A stretch of 64,000 bases of DNA from Candidatus Heimdallarchaeota archaeon (GTDB lineage Archaea; Asgardarchaeota; Heimdallarchaeia; Heimdallarchaeales; Heimdallarchaeaceae), in assembly GCA_021399395.1 (NCBI GenBank), contig JAAFKJ010000047.1, forward strand, positions 657-64,656, read 5' to 3'. Position 1 is the first letter of the stretch, and every line of letters begins with the position of its first letter. Below, one piece after another: positions 323 to 59,339 of this stretch. The position numbers and the translations under genes are program-made. Under the pieces are notes generated by a model. That model did not search any database, was not told the origin of the DNA, and saw only the letters and a list, made by a program, of their open reading frames with translations.

Positions 323-2143
323 TTACAGTCTTCTTTTGAAAAAATCCAAGATTGTTTTGAAGGATCTTAAACGGAACGTTTGATCTGTAAAACCACCATG
401 ACCAATATCTGTGTGCTCAATATATTCAAAGGTTTTTTCTCCTTCTTTTCCTTCTTTCCAACCTAATTCGAAAAGTTTGTCTCGATATACTCTAGCTTGA
501 GTTATTGGACATCTTGGATCATGAGCACCATGAACTATAAGTAAAGTTGTATTCAGATTTTCTGCGTAATTTATTGGTGACCTTTCTTTATACAGATCTG
601 CTTTTTCTTCAGGTTCCCCGAAAAGCATATGGAGATAATATTTGAAATGAGGCATACTTTCATCGTATAGTAGCTTCCAATCTGTTATTCCCACACTTGC
701 AGCTCCCGCTTTCCATAAATCTGGTTTCTTCACAGTTGCCCAGAAAGTCATATAACCACCATATGAAGTCCCAAAAATCCCAACTCTTTTGATATCAACA
801 TAATCCAGAGTTTTCAGATAATCCACTCCTGCAAGAACATCGTCTAAATCTCCTCCACCAATGTCTTCAATGTTCATATCTTGAAATTCTCTCCCATAAC
901 CTGTTGAACCTCTAAAATTTGGTTTAAGAACTACAAAACCATTATTGACCAAAATCTGATCAAACATGCTAAAGTTTCTAAAATATTGACCTGTGGGACC
1001 ACCATGTACTTGGATAAGTGCAGGTAATTTCTTTCCTTGTTCAATGTTCTTAGGTTTATACAAAATAGCTCCAATTGTGAGGTTGTCAGTTGAAGGATAT
1101 TCCACATAATCATCTTCAATAAAGAAGTCTGGTTTCAAATCACCAAGATTTGTTGGTATTAGTTCATCGATTACATTTTCTTTCAGATCATATTTTATTA
1201 ACTTGCTTGGACTTGTAGAGGAATTCAAAGTTAAAACTAGATATTTATCATCTTTTGTAATTGCTGTACCTGCTACAATACCTGGGGGAAAATCAAGTGT
1301 TCTTTCCTTACCAGAAACAATATCATAAATCATAGGATATACAGTAGCTTTTGAGTTCCTTGCACAGACTAGAAATTTACCATCTACGGAAAACTTTCCT
1401 GAGTACTCTTGTGATGAACCATCACCAAACCACTTTACTTCTTTAATTTCAAAATTATAGACCCCCGCACGTGAATTACCTTCGAAATCAGAAGTTAAGG
1501 CAAGTGTTTTACCGTCTTGTGAGATATCTGTTACTCCATCTTGAGAGCCTTCTTTAAAACTTAATAGTTTTCTCTGATTTGATCCATCAGTATTCATAAT
1601 CCAAATGTCCCCATTTTGCAAATTTGGAGTGTCATTATATCCAAAAACAATATATTCGTTAGTGGGGCTAAACGTTGCTCCAAGAACCGGTCGTTTGTAG
1701 TTAGTTAATTCTTGAATTTCTTTACTCTCAAAATTATAATTGAATAAATTCCTTTGACCATTTCTTGTTGAACTAAATAGAAGCTTTTTACCATCAGGAC
1801 TCGTATGAGCAACATGTTCTTGAAAAGTGGGTGTCTCTGTAATCTGATTCGTTTCTTTTGTTTCTAAGTTTATCATATAGAGATCGTGTTGTTCATTTCC
1901 ATCTTTGTCTTTAGCAAAAATTATGTTCTTGTTATCACGAGTCCAGATAAAACCAGCTCTTAAAGCTCTGGGAACTTCACCATGACTAATTTGTTCATAG
2001 TCTTTAGTCTTTAAATCCATCACATATAATTCAACCCTACCTGTAATATCCCAGAAGAAAGCAATTTTATCTTTAGAATGATTTAAGCTGGTCATGTAGA
2101 ATTGAGGAATACGTGCAATTTTCTCAATTAGTTCATCAGACAT
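323..2143 (-). CDS. S9 family serine peptidase (prolyl oligopeptidase / acylaminoacyl-peptidase type) with N-terminal beta-propeller
   Basis: 606-aa ORF. The nucleophile elbow is GIFGTSYGGYM (GxSxGG), followed by VHGAHDPRCP (Asp) and DIGHGG (His). The N-terminal half has TolB/DPP-IV-like repeats. Confidence 0.85.
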   Translation of the reverse strand: MSDELIEKIARIPQFYMTSLNHSKDKIAFFWDITGRVELYVMDLKTKDYEQISHGEVPRALRAGFIWTRDNKNIIFAKDKDGNEQHDLYMINLETKETNQITETPTFQEHVAHTSPDGKKLLFSSTRNGQRNLFNYNFESKEIQELTNYKRPVLGATFSPTNEYIVFGYNDTPNLQNGDIWIMNTDGSNQRKLLSFKEGSQDGVTDISQDGKTLALTSDFEGNSRAGVYNFEIKEVKWFGDGSSQEYSGKFSVDGKFLVCARNSKATVYPMIYDIVSGKERTLDFPPGIVAGTAITKDDKYLVLTLNSSTSPSKLIKYDLKENVIDELIPTNLGDLKPDFFIEDDYVEYPSTDNLTIGAILYKPKNIEQGKKLPALIQVHGGPTGQYFRNFSMFDQILVNNGFVVLKPNFRGSTGYGREFQDMNIEDIGGGDLDDVLAGVDYLKTLDYVDIKRVGIFGTSYGGYMTFWATVKKPDLWKAGAASVGITDWKLLYDESMPHFKYYLHMLFGEPEEKADLYKERSPINYAENLNTTLLIVHGAHDPRCPITQARVYRDKLFELGWKEGKEGEKTFEYIEHTDIGHGGFTDQTFRLRSFKTILDFFKRRL

Positions 2144-2282
2144 AAGTCAATGACACGATTTAATTTGAAAAGATTTACGGTACAACATGTGACAAAGGTA
2201 CACTTTTTGGTCACAAATTGTGTTTCTTCTTTTTATATATGAGGGAGAAGGATAAGATAGAACAAATAAATTGGTGAAATAA

Positions 2283-3473
2283 ATGGGCGATATAGTCGTA
2301 AAAGAAGACGAAAACATTGAACTAACCAAGGTTGATGGAAATCTAAAGATTGGCGATGGTGCAGAAATTGCTGTTCCTTCTGGCACTTTAGTTATTTCTG
2401 GAGATCTTGTTAGTAAAGGAGATATAGTAATACGTGGATCAGTTAAAGTTGATAATATCAAACATGACTGGGGATACCTTGAGATAGAAGGTGATGTAGA
2501 TACATCATATGTAAAAGTCTCAAGTAGAAGATCAAGCAATGGATCAAAGTTGATAATAACTGGTTCATTGAACTGTGGAGAAATAGACATTGATGGTGGT
2601 TTAGAAGTAGACAAAGACCTTACAGCAGGAGATGTAGAAATCGGAGGTAGTTGTATTGTTCATGGAGAAACAAATGTCAAGGACTATGATATCAGTGGTT
2701 CGGCTAAACATGGAATGAATTTAACAGCCACAGATATTGAAGTAAGTGGTTCTCTGAAGGTTGATGGAGATGTTAAATCCAGTTCTGATTTTGAAATTTC
2801 AGGATCTGCAAAAATTGAAGGAATTTTAGAAGCACAGGAAGTAAGTGTTGGTGGTTCCTTGAAGTGTCAAGAGATAAAATGTGAAGAAATTGAAATTGGA
2901 GGTTCAGCTAAAATCGAATTTGGCCAAATCACAAAAGGATTAGAAGTAGGTGGTGCCTTTGGATGTAGCGACAGCTTCACAGCAGATGTAGTATCTTGTG
3001 GAGGATCTTGCGGATTTGGTGATGACTCTAAGATAAATAAATTAGAAGCAAATGGTGCTACCAAAGTTGGTGATAATTTTCAATTTAAAGATGTTAAAGT
3101 CAACGGTTCATTCTCTTTTGGAATCGATGCAGTAGGTGAAAACCTAGAAGTAAATGGAGCATGTTCTTCCAAAGATAACTTGAAAGTACTGGAGACAATA
3201 GTTGTCAATGGAAAACTGACTGGAAAACATATTGAAGCTAACAAAATTGAAATCGCAGGTGGCTTAGAATGTACTGAAGCCAAAGGACAAAACATTCTAA
3301 TTCAAGAAGATTCTCGAGTTCGAGGAAAATTAGTTGGTGGAGAAGTTATTGTTGAAGATGGGGCAAGAGTTGACCATATAGTTGCAGATAGTGTAAAATT
3401 AGGTGATAAAGTAAAAGTTACCAGATTAGAATCTGCAAATATAGATGCTGAAGATTCTGCTAAATATAATTAG
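2283..3473 (+). CDS. Bactofilin-like (polymer-forming cytoskeletal family) beta-helix repeat protein
   Basis: 396-aa ORF made almost entirely of short degenerate repeats, for example ISGSAKHG, VSGSLKVDGDV, ISGSAKIEGIL, VGGSLKCQEI and IGGSAKIEFG. This is typical of right-handed beta-helix bactofilin/CcmA-type proteins. It is a paralogue of 52156-53058. Confidence 0.6.
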   Translation: MGDIVVKEDENIELTKVDGNLKIGDGAEIAVPSGTLVISGDLVSKGDIVIRGSVKVDNIKHDWGYLEIEGDVDTSYVKVSSRRSSNGSKLIITGSLNCGEIDIDGGLEVDKDLTAGDVEIGGSCIVHGETNVKDYDISGSAKHGMNLTATDIEVSGSLKVDGDVKSSSDFEISGSAKIEGILEAQEVSVGGSLKCQEIKCEEIEIGGSAKIEFGQITKGLEVGGAFGCSDSFTADVVSCGGSCGFGDDSKINKLEANGATKVGDNFQFKDVKVNGSFSFGIDAVGENLEVNGACSSKDNLKVLETIVVNGKLTGKHIEANKIEIAGGLECTEAKGQNILIQEDSRVRGKLVGGEVIVEDGARVDHIVADSVKLGDKVKVTRLESANIDAEDSAKYN

Positions 3474-3555
3474 ATACAGAAAAGTAATCAATTTAGGTCT
3501 CTGAAAATCGGAGACTTAATATTCTCCTTTTACCTAATCAAAATAGGTCATCAAA

Positions 3556-3873
3556 ATGCCAGCTGTAAATAGATCAAGATATGACATCTACGCAGACATT
3601 GTTTCCGTTCTGCAGTTTTACAATGAAGCAGGTATATCTCAGATTGCCAGAAGAGCTAATCTTCCTATCGATCGTGCTAAAGGATTAGTAGAATTCATGG
3701 TAGCGAGAGGTTTAGTATTAAAACAAGAGAACCCCAAAAAACGTCCTAATGTGTTATATCTTGGTACAAATAGAGGGTATCAATATTATGAATTGTACAA
3801 ACAACTACATCACATGGTTGTTGAGATAACTGATGATGAACTGGAATTTGGAATTGGTTTTGACATGAAGTAA
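3556..3873 (+). CDS. Small winged-helix DNA-binding protein
   Basis: 105-aa ORF. The segment GISQIARRANLPIDRAKGLVEFMVARGLV has an HTH plus wing pattern like small archaeal wHTH regulators. Confidence 0.55.
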   Translation: MPAVNRSRYDIYADIVSVLQFYNEAGISQIARRANLPIDRAKGLVEFMVARGLVLKQENPKKRPNVLYLGTNRGYQYYELYKQLHHMVVEITDDELEFGIGFDMK

Positions 3874-40693: not shown

Positions 40694-41878
40694 TTGGAGA
40701 GAAAGCGTTTGAACAGAATTAAAACAATTGCATCAGAATCAGTAACAGAAGGTCATCCAGATAAAATCTGTGATCAGATATCAGATGCGATTTTAGATGA
40801 ACTTATCAAAAAAGATCCTGATGCTCATGTTGCTTGTGAGTGCTTTGTAACAACAGGACTTGTGTTATTGGGTGGAGAGATAACAACCACTAAACCAGTT
40901 ATTATAGATTACGAGAAAATTGTTCGTTCAACAATCAAAGAGATTGGTTATGATGATTCTAGTATAGGATTTGATTACAGAGGTTGTGCGATTATTAACA
41001 CTATACATTCCCAATCTCCGGACATTGCACAAGGAGTGAGAAAGGATGAAGTTGAAGAGCAAGGTGCTGGGGATCAAGGAATTATGTATGGTTATGCAAC
41101 TAATGAAACACCAGAGTTTATGCCTCTCCCCATTGTTTTAGCACATAAACTTACACAAAAACTTACAGATGTTCGCAAAAAGGGAATTCTACCTTTTCTT
41201 AGACCTGATGGTAAATCATTGGTAGCAGTTGAGTATAAAGATGATAAACCCTTCAGAATCGCAGCGATTGTAATAGCAGCTCAACATACACAAGAAGCTA
41301 CTAACGAAGAAATAGATAAAGGAATTAGAAAAGAAGTTATTGAAACTATTGTCGATAAGAAATTAGTAGATGAAAAAACAAAAATATTCATTAACAGAAC
41401 TGGCAGATTCGTCACAGGTGGCCCTCATGGAGATGCGGGGTTAACAGGTAGAAAAATTATTGTAGACACTTATGGTGGCGTTGATTCCCATGGAGGAGGA
41501 GCTTTCTCTGGGAAAGACCCTTCAAAGGTTGATCGTTCTGCGTCTTATGCGGCTAGATATATGGCCAAGAATGTTGTTGCAGCAGGTTTAGCAGATAAAT
41601 GCGAAATTCAGGTTTCCTATGCGATAGGAGAACCCCAACCTCTAGCTGTCAACGTTGAGTGTTTTGGAACAGAAAAAGTAGATAAAGACAAACTACAAAA
41701 AGCAGTTTTAAACGTATTTGACTTTAGACCTGGAAAAATAATCAAGCATCTTGATTTGAAAAAACCAATTTACAAAAAGACATCTTGTTATGGTCATTTT
41801 GGAAGAAACTTGCCAGAATTTACTTGGGAAAAGACAGACAAAGTTGATGAGCTGAAAAGAGCTTTAAATATCGAATAA
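40694..41878 (+). CDS. metK: S-adenosylmethionine synthetase, bacterial/eukaryotic MetK type (non-AUG start)
   Basis: Contains [31 protein letters not shown] and [16 protein letters not shown]. There is no in-frame ATG upstream of the conserved N-terminus, so the start is TTG 40694 or TTG 40709. Confidence 0.9.
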
Positions 41879-52155: not shown

Positions 52156-53058
52156 ATGAGCCAAGACGACATAAGAATGTATGAAGAACTTCTTCAACTT
52201 CTAGAAGAGCGACGTAAGAAAGAAGAGATAGACGAATCAAGTTTCATTGAGTTAAAAGAAAGATATACTGAGAAACTAGAAAAAACAAAGGAAGCATTCA
52301 AATTCCAAGAAGATGCTCCTACTGTTAGAGTCGCAGGAGAAAAAATCTTAACTCAAGATGCTTTAACAGTTTCAGGTGCTGCCACAATTACAGGAGGGAA
52401 GATTATGAGGGACATCAGAATATCAGGATCTGGAAGAATCACAAGTGCAGTTGAATGCAATTCTCTGCGATGTTCTGGAGTAGTAAAAGCTTTAGGCGAC
52501 ATTATTGCTCATGGAGAGGTAAAATGCTCTGGCTCATTTAAATGTGAGGGAAATCTTCATGGGGATGGGAATGCAACTTTTAGTGGATCCGCTAAAACTG
52601 CTGGGGAAGTTGTTATTCAAGGTAACCTTACAATTTCAGGATCATATAGAAGTGGAAAGAATACGCAAGCTGTAACTGGTGCATCGTTAATTGGGTCAAC
52701 AACAATAGAGGGGAATTTACTATCTGAAAATTCTATCAAGATTGGAGGGAAGGCGCGTATACGTAAAAATATACTGTGTGAAAACATACTAATTGAAGGC
52801 AGGAGGACAGTATTTGAATCTTGGTTCTTTAGAAGACAAAAGAAATTAGTTCACGTCGAGGGAAATATTATAGCGCAAAAAGATGTTGATGTCCAAGATG
52901 TTCACGTTCGTAAGAATATCAAAGGAAGAACTGTCAAATTGGGACCAAATACTCAAGTTGAAGGAAAGGTTTACTATGTTGAAGATTTATTTCTGAGTAA
53001 AAGTGTTAAGTTGTTGAAAGAGCCTGTAAAAATAAAACAGGAAGATCTCAAACTTTAA
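52156..53058 (+). CDS. Bactofilin-like beta-helix repeat protein with N-terminal coiled-coil
   Basis: Has repeats such as ISGSGRITS, CSGVVKALGDI, CSGSFKCEGNL, FSGSAKTAGEV and ISGSYRSG. The N-terminal roughly 50 aa are charged and helical. It is a paralogue of 2283-3473. Confidence 0.6.
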   Translation: MSQDDIRMYEELLQLLEERRKKEEIDESSFIELKERYTEKLEKTKEAFKFQEDAPTVRVAGEKILTQDALTVSGAATITGGKIMRDIRISGSGRITSAVECNSLRCSGVVKALGDIIAHGEVKCSGSFKCEGNLHGDGNATFSGSAKTAGEVVIQGNLTISGSYRSGKNTQAVTGASLIGSTTIEGNLLSENSIKIGGKARIRKNILCENILIEGRRTVFESWFFRRQKKLVHVEGNIIAQKDVDVQDVHVRKNIKGRTVKLGPNTQVEGKVYYVEDLFLSKSVKLLKEPVKIKQEDLKL

Positions 53059-53148
53059 TCGCGCCCTTTTCCCTATTTTTTCATAATTGCATTTTAGACT
53101 AAAAATGCCATTAATTACACCTCAAGCCACGATAAAAATAGAGGAATA

Positions 53149-53182
53149 AGGATAAGAAGTACTTATCCTATTTTTTGTTTTT
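53149..53182 (+). terminator. Hairpin plus T-tract, putative terminator of 52156-53058
   Basis: An 8-bp perfect stem AGGATAAG/CTTATCCT (53149-53169, 5-nt loop) is followed by ATTTTTTGTTTTT. Confidence 0.35.
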
Positions 53183-53195
53183 ACAAATTATGATG

Positions 53196-53480
53196 GGTTT
53201 TTGTCATGTTGGCACGTTAACCAACATAGTTGAGCACATTTTATAGACGATGTATGTGTCATTCCTTATGGGTCTACGCACATTCTATAGGGGTACATCA
53301 CGTACCCTCCTACCCCGTTCACACCATTTATGGTGCTTTCGGATCGCTTGTTCCCTTCGTGATGGGTATAATGGAAAGGATTCCATTTCTCTCGTAACTT
53401 GACTACAATCCCAGTGGGAGGTGGTCACATAGGCTACTTGAGCGGTAAACCCCGCTCCTACTTCTTCAAGACCTTTTGAC
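53196..53480. ncRNA. Unassigned GC-rich structured RNA candidate (minus strand slightly favoured)
   Basis: It lies in an ORF-free gap between convergent genes. By hand count, 53201-53480 has 128 G+C of 280 nt (46%), against 28-32% in the adjacent 60-nt flanks. Perfect hairpins occur at 53206-53227 (7 bp), 53291-53307 (6 bp), 53322-53335 (5 bp), 53371-53386 (6 bp) and 53440-53457 (6 bp). Confidence 0.5.
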
Positions 53481-53488
53481 TATATAAT
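53481..53488 (-). promoter_or_regulatory. TATA-box-like ATTATATA upstream (minus strand) of the GC-rich RNA candidate
   Basis: The minus strand reads GGGAGATTATATAGTCAAAAGGTCTTGAAGAAGTAGGAGCGGGG. The box is about 20-25 nt upstream of where the GC-rich sequence begins. Confidence 0.3.
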
Positions 53489-53550
53489 CTCCCGTAATAT
53501 CTTACTTTCAGTCTTCTTTCAAACTGATTAGTAACCTATTTAAGATGACT

Positions 53551-55077
53551 TCAGGACAAAGTTCTTTCATAAATTTTTGAGAATTTTTCTTCAAGATATT
53601 TTAGATGATATTTTGGTGTTAAATCTTCTCCAGTTATACTCTTGACCATATCAAGGCAATCTAAGGTTCCACCTTTTTCATGAACATTAGTTTTAAGCCA
53701 CTCTCGGATTGGTGTGAATTTACCTTTTTGCAAAGAGTTTTGCCATTCTGGAAGACTTTTATTCATTTTAGCTGTTATCTGAGAGGAGATTAGATCCCCT
53801 ATTCCATAACCGAAGAAGTAACCATAGTATTGAGAATACCAATGCAAATCTTGCATCAACCCCAAAGTATCATTTGGAACATCAACGCCTAGATATTGTT
53901 TGTATTTTTCATTCCAAACTTGAGGTAATTCGTTGGTTTTTATTTTTCCAGCAAACCAATCCCTTTCAATTTCAAAACGGATAATGATATGCAAAATATA
54001 GGTCACTTCATCAGCTTGAATTCTTATAAACCCAGGAGTTACAGCATTAAGTGCAGAATAGAAATCATTTGAAGAGATATCATCAAAAACCCCATCAGCA
54101 TCCTTCTTAAACTGTTTATAATAATAGTCCCAAAACTCTTCTGAACTTGCGACAATGTTTTCAAATAATCTAGATTGTGACTCGCCAAAACTGGGAGAAG
54201 ACATTCGATAAATAGGTTGATTATACCACTCATCCTTTCCTTGTAAACTATGAATAGCATGCCCACATTCATGAGCTCCAGCAAGAAAAGCTGCTAGAAT
54301 ATTATCTTCATGATACTTGACTGTAACCCTAACATCTTTGTACCCACCACCTATAGTAAGTGGGTGTTCTACCTCAGCGATATTACCAGGAGCATCTTTT
54401 GAATAGAAATCATATTCCAAATATTTTGCCAGATTTTCCACCATTTTAACCTGTGTTGAACGTGATACATGTCTTGATAAAAAGGATCTATCAGGTTTTA
54501 CACCAGATTCTTTACATGTCTTGATAAATGGAACCAAGAATGATTTAGCTTCATCAAAAAGTTTGGTAAGTGAATCTACACTAAAACCCTTATCCCGACT
54601 ATCGATTAGTGCATTAAAGGGGTCATTCATTTCTTTAGATTCAGCTAATAATGAAGCTGATTCCAAATTAAGATCAAACAATATCTCTAAGTCAGGAAGA
54701 ACCATCTGAAAATCAATTTTTTCCTTAGCTTTTTTCCATACTTCTAGAGTTTTGTTTGATTGAGCCGCAAGCTTTCCTACAAGTTCAGAAGGTAAAATTG
54801 TTCTACTGTCATATGTTCTCCGTAGAAGTTCAACATTTCTTCTTTGAATCTCATTGAGAGAAGAGTCTTGTTCACAAGAATTCAGAAGAATACCAACTTC
54901 AGGATCAGTAATTAAACCATGAGTTTTTTGGCTGATATATTGAAACTGTTTTGCTCGCTGACCTACAGCAGCTGGAGGCATGTAAGTATTCATATCCCAG
55001 TATAAAACCCCACTAATTGAATTTAATAGTTGTATTTCTTGATAACGATCAAGTAATGTTTTGTAAGCGGTTTTCAT
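53551..55077 (-). CDS. Carboxypeptidase Taq-type M32 metallopeptidase
   Basis: Contains HECGHAIH (HExxH), IRIQADEVTY and GLMQDLHW, the M32 signature motifs. Confidence 0.9.
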   Translation of the reverse strand: MKTAYKTLLDRYQEIQLLNSISGVLYWDMNTYMPPAAVGQRAKQFQYISQKTHGLITDPEVGILLNSCEQDSSLNEIQRRNVELLRRTYDSRTILPSELVGKLAAQSNKTLEVWKKAKEKIDFQMVLPDLEILFDLNLESASLLAESKEMNDPFNALIDSRDKGFSVDSLTKLFDEAKSFLVPFIKTCKESGVKPDRSFLSRHVSRSTQVKMVENLAKYLEYDFYSKDAPGNIAEVEHPLTIGGGYKDVRVTVKYHEDNILAAFLAGAHECGHAIHSLQGKDEWYNQPIYRMSSPSFGESQSRLFENIVASSEEFWDYYYKQFKKDADGVFDDISSNDFYSALNAVTPGFIRIQADEVTYILHIIIRFEIERDWFAGKIKTNELPQVWNEKYKQYLGVDVPNDTLGLMQDLHWYSQYYGYFFGYGIGDLISSQITAKMNKSLPEWQNSLQKGKFTPIREWLKTNVHEKGGTLDCLDMVKSITGEDLTPKYHLKYLEEKFSKIYERTLS

Positions 55078-59243: not shown

Positions 59244-59339
59244 TGGCGGACCAGGCAGGATTCGAACCTGCGACCTTCTCCTGTCTTCAGTTATAAACTT
59301 CCGAAGGGAGACGCCTTATCCATGCTAGACTACTGGCCC
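59244..59339 (-). tRNA. tRNA-Arg (anticodon TCG) with an 18-nt intron at 37/38 and encoded CCA
   Basis: The minus strand reads GGGCCAG-TA-GTCT-AGCATGGATA-AGGC-G-TCTCC-CTTCGG[intron 59300..59283]A-GGAGA-AGGTC-GCAGG-TTCGAAT-CCTGC-CTGGTCC-G-CCA. Confidence 0.85.

Follow-up and report, generated by a model that had tools for sequence, protein, structure and literature searches.

Comparative evidence that a GC-rich island in a Heimdallarchaeota contig is a small mobile insertion with a conserved folded left end

Introduction

Transposons of the IS200/IS605 family are the most widespread insertion sequences (IS) in archaea and occur in more than 65% of Asgard genomes (PMC13343696). They transpose as single-stranded DNA by means of TnpA, a Y1 HUH transposase, and are recognized by subterminal palindromes on the top strand, by pentanucleotides (TTTAT, TTCAT) that act as target-adjacent motif (TAM) and transposon-encoded motif (TEM), by scarless donor joints and by the existence of PATE-like derivatives that carry no gene (PMC10055086). 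PATEs are palindrome-associated, gene-less derivatives of IS200/IS605 (IS1341-type) elements and are found in haloarchaea and Geobacillus. Here we describe an element from a contig of a Candidatus Heimdallarchaeota archaeon, of which a stretch of 64,000 nucleotides was analyzed (the window; all positions refer to it unless another contig is named). A GC-rich island at 53196-53480, between a bactofilin-like open reading frame (ORF) and a convergent M32 carboxypeptidase gene, had been proposed to be an unassigned structured RNA (the original prediction). Comparison with related contigs indicates instead that the island belongs to a mobile insertion, most likely a PATE-like IS200/IS605 element whose left end is unusually elaborate.

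The element shares with PATEs a length of 0.25-0.4 kb, the absence of an ORF and of terminal inverted repeats, and an AT-rich pentanucleotide that precedes the left end and has a similar counterpart at the element end. As in PATEs, insertion is scarless at the two best-resolved sites, and hairpins lie on one strand near the ends, although at the right end one is clear in L046 only; like them, the element would rely on a transposase encoded elsewhere. Unlike in PATEs, its left end comprises five covarying helices and an invariant core of 27 nt within ~165 nt. Its right end is short and shows little conservation, in contrast to the omega-RNA-bearing right end that PATEs usually retain. Two of its sites also have flanking repeats of 10-11 nt, and no autonomous partner was found.

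Results

Insertion at the end of the carboxypeptidase gene

The M32 carboxypeptidase is 52-84% identical to proteins of 11 contigs from Heimdallarchaeota metagenome-assembled genomes, and the gene order enolase - carboxypeptidase - bactofilin is conserved among these Heimdall loci. At the syntenic site, nothing island-like was found in any of the 11. The gap between the two convergent genes is 33-75 nt in L001, L002, L004 and L005 and 492 nt in the window, from the end of the bactofilin-like ORF at 53058 (+) to that of the carboxypeptidase ORF at 53551 (-). The carboxypeptidase of the window has 508 amino acids (aa) and ends in KIYERTLS-stop, whereas all of the eight closest homologues have 505 aa and end in xxYx(L/I)-stop (e.g., DIYNL-stop in L010, where the site is uninterrupted). 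In silico removal of 53192-53570 (379 nt) gives a 505-aa protein ending in KFSKIYNL-stop. Because exact removal restores a homologue-like protein, the comparison identifies the island as a scarless, lineage-specific insertion of 379 nt, located two codons before the original carboxypeptidase stop. The excision joins ...AAATTAT to AAATTTTTGAG, with the dinucleotide AT alone common to both junctions, and the reconstructed empty-site allele reads AAATTAT/AAATTTTTG (slash, junction). The features of the site are as follows.

53192-53570 (+): inserted element, consisting of the structured left end, a window-specific middle module and an AT-rich tail.
53187-53191 (+): target motif ATTAT (TAM-like), directly 5' of the element.
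53181-53189 (-): orphaned last codons of the carboxypeptidase gene, AAT TTG TAA (N, L, stop), severed by the insertion (compare L010).
53551-55077 (-): M32 carboxypeptidase gene; its last five codons and stop (ERTLS-stop, 53551-53568) come from the right end of the element.
52156-53058 (+): bactofilin-like ORF, the convergent neighbor.
53123-53180 (+): relic 3' end of a 607-aa gene (...IKIEE-stop) with a hairpin-plus-T-run terminator at 53149-53169.

Two forms of target duplication were considered at this site and rejected. The right "copy" of an apparent 15-bp duplication is homologous to the right end of the element in L046, and exact excision restores the ORF; a TA duplication of the Tc1/IS630 kind would not restore the ORF and does not fit the junctions of L045.

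The left flank retains traces of an older arrangement. Carboxypeptidase and bactofilin are separated by a 607-aa gene in L010 (5519-7374), L006 and L038; this gene is missing in the window, L001, L002, L004 and L005. The relic in the window matches L010 5510-5577 with 78% identity over 68 nt (E 4e-8), and 53123-53189 as a whole is homologous to the last codons of the 607-aa gene of L010, its terminator and the original carboxypeptidase end. The left junction and the first 130 nt are identical in an independent Logan assembly of the same strain (L039, SRR29278612), and the insertion is therefore not an assembly artefact. The L039 contig ends at window position 53318, right after the invariant 27-mer described below, as would be expected if the sample holds copies with different continuations. 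A second bactofilin-like gene is present in the window at 2283-3473 (+) (Pfam Bactofilin, E 4e-12); the ORF at 52156-53058 has only a faint precomputed Bactofilin match.

A conserved folded domain at the left end

Homology between the element and sequences in other contigs is limited to 53188-53349 (nhmmer E 2e-18 to L046 and 1.6e-15 to L044/L045). When the window, L046 and L044 were folded jointly with alifold, 11 of 44 pairs showed compensatory changes. With a more diverged copy (L052) added, 89.8% of the cells were paired and 13 of the 44 pairs were doubly changed, compared with 30-48% and 0-2, respectively, in slid controls; none of 500 shuffles reached the observed values. It is this covariation among homologues that shows the structure to be real, and it does so for 53186-53352 only. 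The minus strand had been slightly favored as the RNA-like one; G·U cells outnumber A·C cells by 19 to 4, and the fold is therefore assigned to the plus strand. Taken together, the alignments identify the first ~165 nt as a conserved five-helix plus-strand structure with compensatory changes and a 27-nt invariant core, made up of the following parts.

53186-53352 (+): conserved structured left-end domain (model R1, 172 bits), overlapping the left flank by six bases.
53191-95/53316-20 (+): P1, closing helix UGAUG/CAUCA.
53206-12/53222-27 (+): P2, hairpin inside P1.
53242-62/53268-89 (+): P3, long hairpin inside P1.
53290-96/53302-08 (+): P4, hairpin inside P1.
53322-27/53330-35 (+): P5, fifth hairpin, after P1.
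53290-53316 (+): invariant 27-mer GGGGTACATCACGTACCCTCCTACCCC, comprising the P4 hairpin and the single strand 3' of it; identical in the window, L044/L045 and L046.

The 27-mer is destroyed in L052, which is a decayed copy. In L044 and L046, CCUCC in the invariant core faces GGAGG in P5 (by eye).

The remainder of the element is far less conserved and consists of two parts.

53353-53485 (+): window-specific GC-rich module with three predicted perfect hairpins (53370-87, 53400-27 and 53440-57).
53486-53570 (+): AT-rich tail and right end, ending in ...CAGGACAAAGTTCTTTCAT; TTCAT (53566-70) is a TEM-like terminal motif.

The module has no homologue in the 67 loci compared or elsewhere in the window and was not recognized by R1 with filters off. 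It repeats three short motifs of the left domain in the same order and may be a degenerate second copy of that domain. In the tail, the segment CTCCCGTAATAT is common to the window and L052, and the 3' end CAGGACAAAGTTCTTTCAT resembles the end of the element in L046 and L052, CATGACAAAAAGTTTTAT.

Copies at other chromosomal sites

The domain that is absent from the syntenic site of all 11 Heimdallarchaeota loci recurs at other sites, and at each of these sites both filled and empty loci were found. Between rpl44e and sucC, an element of ~320 nt adjoins the sucC start codon in L044/L045, and the site is empty in L057-L064, where the two genes are 94-120 nt apart; some of these contigs encode a SucC with 98% identity to the L045 protein. 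The L045 junctions are scarless when compared with L058-L064, GGCAT/ATTAAG having become GGCAT/GATGAG...GACTCAT/TTGAAG. Between the Sm-like (LSm) gene and rpl11, the element is present in L046 and L052 (gaps of ~415-420 nt) and absent in L054, L055, L066, a P0002 contig and L047 (gaps of 172-230 nt). These sequence comparisons place the same domain at different chromosomal positions in related organisms, with close relatives empty there. With a score of only 60.8 bits, the L052 copy no longer has P4, P5 or the invariant core, so this orthologous copy is not under purifying selection; its decay is as expected of a selfish relic.

In L038, a 2.1-kb insert (1745-3862) between enolase and carboxypeptidase begins right after ATTAT, where L006 has 133 nt. 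The insert is bounded by ATTCTAATTAT and ATTCTACTTAT and contains ORFs of 222, 135 and 80 aa. Near its start, GGGGTACATCA...CCCTCCTAC...CGGTTTGCTTTTG forms a distant look-alike of the conserved core, a similarity that is only suggestive since it is not significant by covariance model or nhmmer.

An exact 20-mer scan of a metagenome collection returned three contigs only, with ~34% G+C. No further copy was detected within the window by blastn or by R1 with filters off; R1 with filters off gave only noise in the 11 syntenic loci and the rpl11 loci (L038, 16 bits), and scans of viral contigs with four patterns gave chance 18-22-mers only. When spurious ORF calls over the conserved core were used as bait for more copies, only L046's own ORF was recorded.

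In L045 (8540-8600), as in L044, the element stands between sucC and the native sequence upstream of it. Read in antisense, the P2 loop gives TTTATATT ~27 nt upstream of the sucC ATG in L045, and the element may therefore supply an outward-facing promoter to sucC. A TnpB-like gene (Pfam Cas12f1-like_TNB, 508-528 aa) occurs in two genomes ~0.4-1.5 kb from the LSm gene (L047 1-1029 and L052 1-937); its position is conserved rather than obviously mobile.

The distribution of the domain also bears on whether it could be an independent small RNA gene of the cell, representing a new family and serving the host, which relocates between genomes and for which mobility is incidental. The covariation, the many G·U pairs and the invariant single-stranded CCUCCUACCCC suggest an RNA that works by base pairing or protein binding, about one intact copy was seen per assembled contig or sample, and the copies have diverged from one another (75-80%) about as much as host genes have. 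However, the domain is not found at the orthologous sites of very close relatives, among them some with 98%-identical SucC, it is inserted scarlessly after a recurring pentanucleotide, in one case inside a coding sequence, and one orthologous copy (L052) is decaying. No conserved promoter is found upstream in the three contexts, and T6/T5 terminator runs precede the window copy, which argues against an ordinary RNA gene, though not against transcription as such. We therefore consider a cellular RNA gene unlikely.

Composition of the island and known RNA families

The features that had drawn attention to the island were confirmed. A gap between convergent genes is present (the 492 nt given above), and 53196-53480 contains 45.6% G+C compared with 33.9% in the whole window (60 G and 70 C on the plus strand). 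Sliding windows of 285 nt have a mean G+C of 0.338 (sd 0.030), and only one other stretch of the window is equally GC-rich (41386-41684, within a SAM-synthetase gene). That gene, at 40694-41878 (+), encodes a three-domain S-AdoMet_synt (MetK-type) S-adenosylmethionine synthetase. The island is indeed without ORFs and dense in hairpins, and the perfect hairpins reported for it are present (ATGTTGG/CCAACAT, GGGGTAC/GTACCC(T), CACC/GGTG, AATGGAA/TTCCATT and GAGCGG/CCGCTC), as are the 8-mer TGATGGGT at 53191 and 53360, ATTATATAG on the minus strand at ~53481-53489, and the plus-strand sequences TAGGCTACTTGAGC and GGTAAACCCC. Compared with shuffles, the folding energy stands out only moderately (z = -2.2 for the plus and -2.3 for the minus strand), and single-sequence folding therefore proves nothing by itself.

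Known RNA families were searched with Rfam 15 (4227 families), using cmscan of the whole window at gathering thresholds and a permissive scan of 52950-53650 at E<=10. No family matched the island at either setting, with the RNase P, signal recognition particle (SRP), 5S, C/D, H/ACA and HEARO models covered, and the homologous contigs likewise gave no match to the conserved domain. In particular, archaeal RNase P RNA (RF00373, RF02357) was not matched at gathering thresholds or at E<=10, nor were archaeal SRP RNA (RF01857) and 5S rRNA (RF00001) at E<=10, in the island or in its homologues. The cmscan proposed with the original prediction has thus been run and does not turn the island into a known RNA. 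The only gathering-threshold match in the whole window is a tRNA-Glu. This tRNA-Glu(UUC), at 59244-59339 (-), is 96 nt long by ARAGORN and 93 nt by Rfam and probably bears an archaeal intron, since it is longer than a standard tRNA.

It had been suggested that the island might be a very divergent RNase P- or SRP-class RNA, and a divergent 5S RNA can be considered together with these. A GC-rich island in an AT-rich archaeal genome would suit any of the three, and 5S rRNA genes could not be predicted with existing models in circular Heimdallarchaeum genomes (PMC8813620). No model matches at E<=10, however; the topology is a four-way junction plus an extra hairpin and not the three-way junction of 5S or the cores of RNase P or SRP RNA, and the domain is missing at the site in every relative examined, present or absent among near-identical strains and decayed in one copy. 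A divergent RNase P, SRP or 5S RNA is therefore extremely unlikely. A 5S match is absent from the 64-kb window too, which is uninformative by itself.

Individual candidates were rejected on similar grounds. 5S rRNA was set aside because of the four-way junction with its extra hairpin and because the element is mobile. A reading of TGATGGGT as the C box of a C/D box small RNA fails since its first copy (AUGAUGR) is the 5' strand of P1 and pairs with CAUCA 125 nt downstream; no D box is in register, and no snoRNA model matches within the element. A housekeeping RNA gene of the RNase P or SRP kind is contradicted by the empty syntenic site in 11 Heimdall loci, by presence and absence at 98%-identical SucC and by the decay of one orthologous copy. 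Nor is the island a coding remnant, its ORFs being without real protein relatives: a 55-aa ORF gave two matches, both of them summed weak matches to a repeat protein. Thus, of the proposed unassigned structured RNA, a conserved, covarying multi-helix nucleic-acid structure without an Rfam match stands, whereas the resident intergenic RNA gene gives way to a 379-nt mobile insertion in the last carboxypeptidase codons.

Ends of the element

In the four copies compared directly, no terminal inverted repeats were found. The sequences 5' of the element are TTTAT in L046 and L052, ATTAT in the window and in L038, and GGCAT in L045, and the element ends are TTTAT, TTCAT, CTCAT and CTTAT (four events only). 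These motifs belong to one class with the TTTAT and TTCAT known from the IS605 family (PMC10055086). P2, a hairpin whose conservation includes compensatory changes, is located 14-16 nt in from the left boundary; at the right end of L046, a hairpin (GTCATGT..ACATGAC) lies 12 nt from the boundary on the same strand as P2. At the two best-resolved junctions (window and L045) there is no target duplication. TnpB-like genes occur in related contigs, unlinked to the element.

Discussion

Ends free of terminal inverted repeats, scarless joints, pentanucleotides and same-strand hairpins define the IS200/IS605 family and for that reason point to a PATE-like member of it. We give about an even chance to the reading that the island is a gene-less PATE-like transposon of the IS200/IS605 type with a structured left end of unusual size. 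The alignments show scarless insertion, mobility and fold, and the type of transposase is inferred from the ends and from traits described in the literature.

If the element is of this type, the top strand, folded as single-stranded DNA, would be the substrate of a Y1 HUH transposase provided in trans, which would recognize a subterminal hairpin (P2, ~14-16 nt from the left boundary). The first cleavage would follow the AT-rich pentanucleotide beside the left end (ATTAT/TTTAT) and the second the similar pentanucleotide that ends the element (TTCAT/TTTAT), and the element would then be joined to the 3' side of a new TTYAT-like site, leaving no duplication. What remains of the conserved left end (P1, P3-P5 and the invariant CCCUCCUAC) exceeds what a transposase would need; most likely it is either the relic leader of a lost transposase gene, with an anti-Shine-Dalgarno-like CCUCC facing GGAGG, or a transposon-encoded RNA.

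Several observations weigh against an IS200/IS605-type element. Direct repeats of 10-11 nt flank the L046/L052 and L038 insertions and are single in the empty sites; they look like a target-site duplication, and IS200/IS605 should make none. No tnpA, tnpB or iscB gene with these ends was found in the loci compared or among ten mid-size ORFs of the window. With one copy in 64 kb and three contigs in the metagenome 20-mer scan, copy number appears to be low. A five-helix left end of 165 nt is atypical for the family, and the structure itself rests on four distinct sequences only. The right-end hairpin is clear in L046 and not evident in the window or L045 copies, and the L045 target GGCAT deviates from TTYAT. 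For the internal guide tetranucleotides that pair with TAM and TEM in IS200/IS605, no assignment was reached in these copies.

The size of the conserved fold raises the question of whether the element might carry its own guide or bridge RNA, programming an enzyme encoded elsewhere, either a recombinase (IS110-type, with an AT core) or a nuclease (IscB/TnpB-like). This would explain both the large conserved fold and the likeness of the target's left flank to the element's right end, which extends over 10-11 nt at two sites. From the element boundary, where it starts, the structured domain reads inward, the AT dinucleotide is found at both junctions in all four events, and terminal inverted repeats are lacking. 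As in the omega-RNAs of TnpB and IscB (including HEARO, RF02033), a structured domain of 150-250 nt encoded by a transposon end abuts the element boundary; unlike them, it matches neither HEARO nor any other Rfam family in sequence or structure, and the element contains no nuclease gene. Its orientation also fits neither type, as the fold lies on the top strand of the left end and reads inward, whereas the omega-RNA of TnpB lies at the right end and reads outward, and IscB has its guide outside the element with transcription entering from the flank. Elements of the IS110/IS1111 type with bridge RNAs likewise have no inverted repeats, a dinucleotide common to both junctions and a structured 5' noncoding region, but here a DEDD recombinase gene is missing, no recombinase or nuclease gene is adjacent, the targets are not one fixed sequence and complementarity of the loops to target or donor was not demonstrated (by eye, loop-target pairing was not convincing, with three AT-rich targets being too few to judge). 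An element programmed by its own guide or bridge RNA is accordingly, in our estimate, decidedly improbable.

The flanking repeats would also suit a SINE-like retroposed RNA, in which the complementary DNA of a structured RNA is inserted by target-primed reverse transcription with duplications of 0-11 nt. Like the short interspersed nuclear elements (SINEs) of eukaryotes, the element combines a structured, RNA-like 5' head with a variable body and a 3' end that is short and conserved; the length of its flanking repeats varies (from 0-3 nt up to 10-11 nt), and its 3' junction, GACAA(AA)AG, is A-rich. Unlike in SINEs, however, there is no A-rich, poly(A) or simple-repeat tail and no known reverse transcriptase partner, none having been seen here; the recurring, sequence-specific TTYAT at target and element end fits cleavage at the DNA level better, and the two best-resolved junctions are exactly scarless. 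No SINE-like retroposons are known in archaea, and we regard this origin as very unlikely. That the 165-nt left-end domain functions as an RNA encoded by the transposon and belonging to a new class, whether as guide or bridge RNA or as the template of RNA-mediated (SINE-like) transposition, is a broader proposal that we consider quite unlikely.

Small, noncoding, interspersed elements that are present or absent between relatives are also known as miniature inverted-repeat transposable elements of DDE transposons and as casposon derivatives. The present element resembles these in such respects and differs from them in having neither terminal inverted repeats nor a target duplication of fixed length.

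The PATE-like IS200/IS605 element remains the most likely class. For annotation, a false lead is removed, as the island is not a missing RNase P, SRP or 5S RNA; where G+C rises locally in an AT-rich archaeal genome, the cause can be a mobile element and not a housekeeping RNA. The comparisons define a new family of small mobile elements in Heimdallarchaeia, without an Rfam family, and the pairs of insertion and empty site, the target motif and the covariance model are now usable for genome-wide mining. Host genes are affected by the insertions: in the window the effect is mainly the replacement of the last two carboxypeptidase codons, which changes the C-terminus from NL-stop to ERTLS-stop, together with a longer 3' untranslated region, and in L045 the promoter region of sucC is displaced. 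Heimdallarchaeia are among the closest archaeal relatives of eukaryotes. Should the large conserved left end prove to be an RNA that takes part in transposition, it would represent a further type of RNA encoded by transposons, and this in the lineage that matters most for how eukaryotic mobile elements arose.

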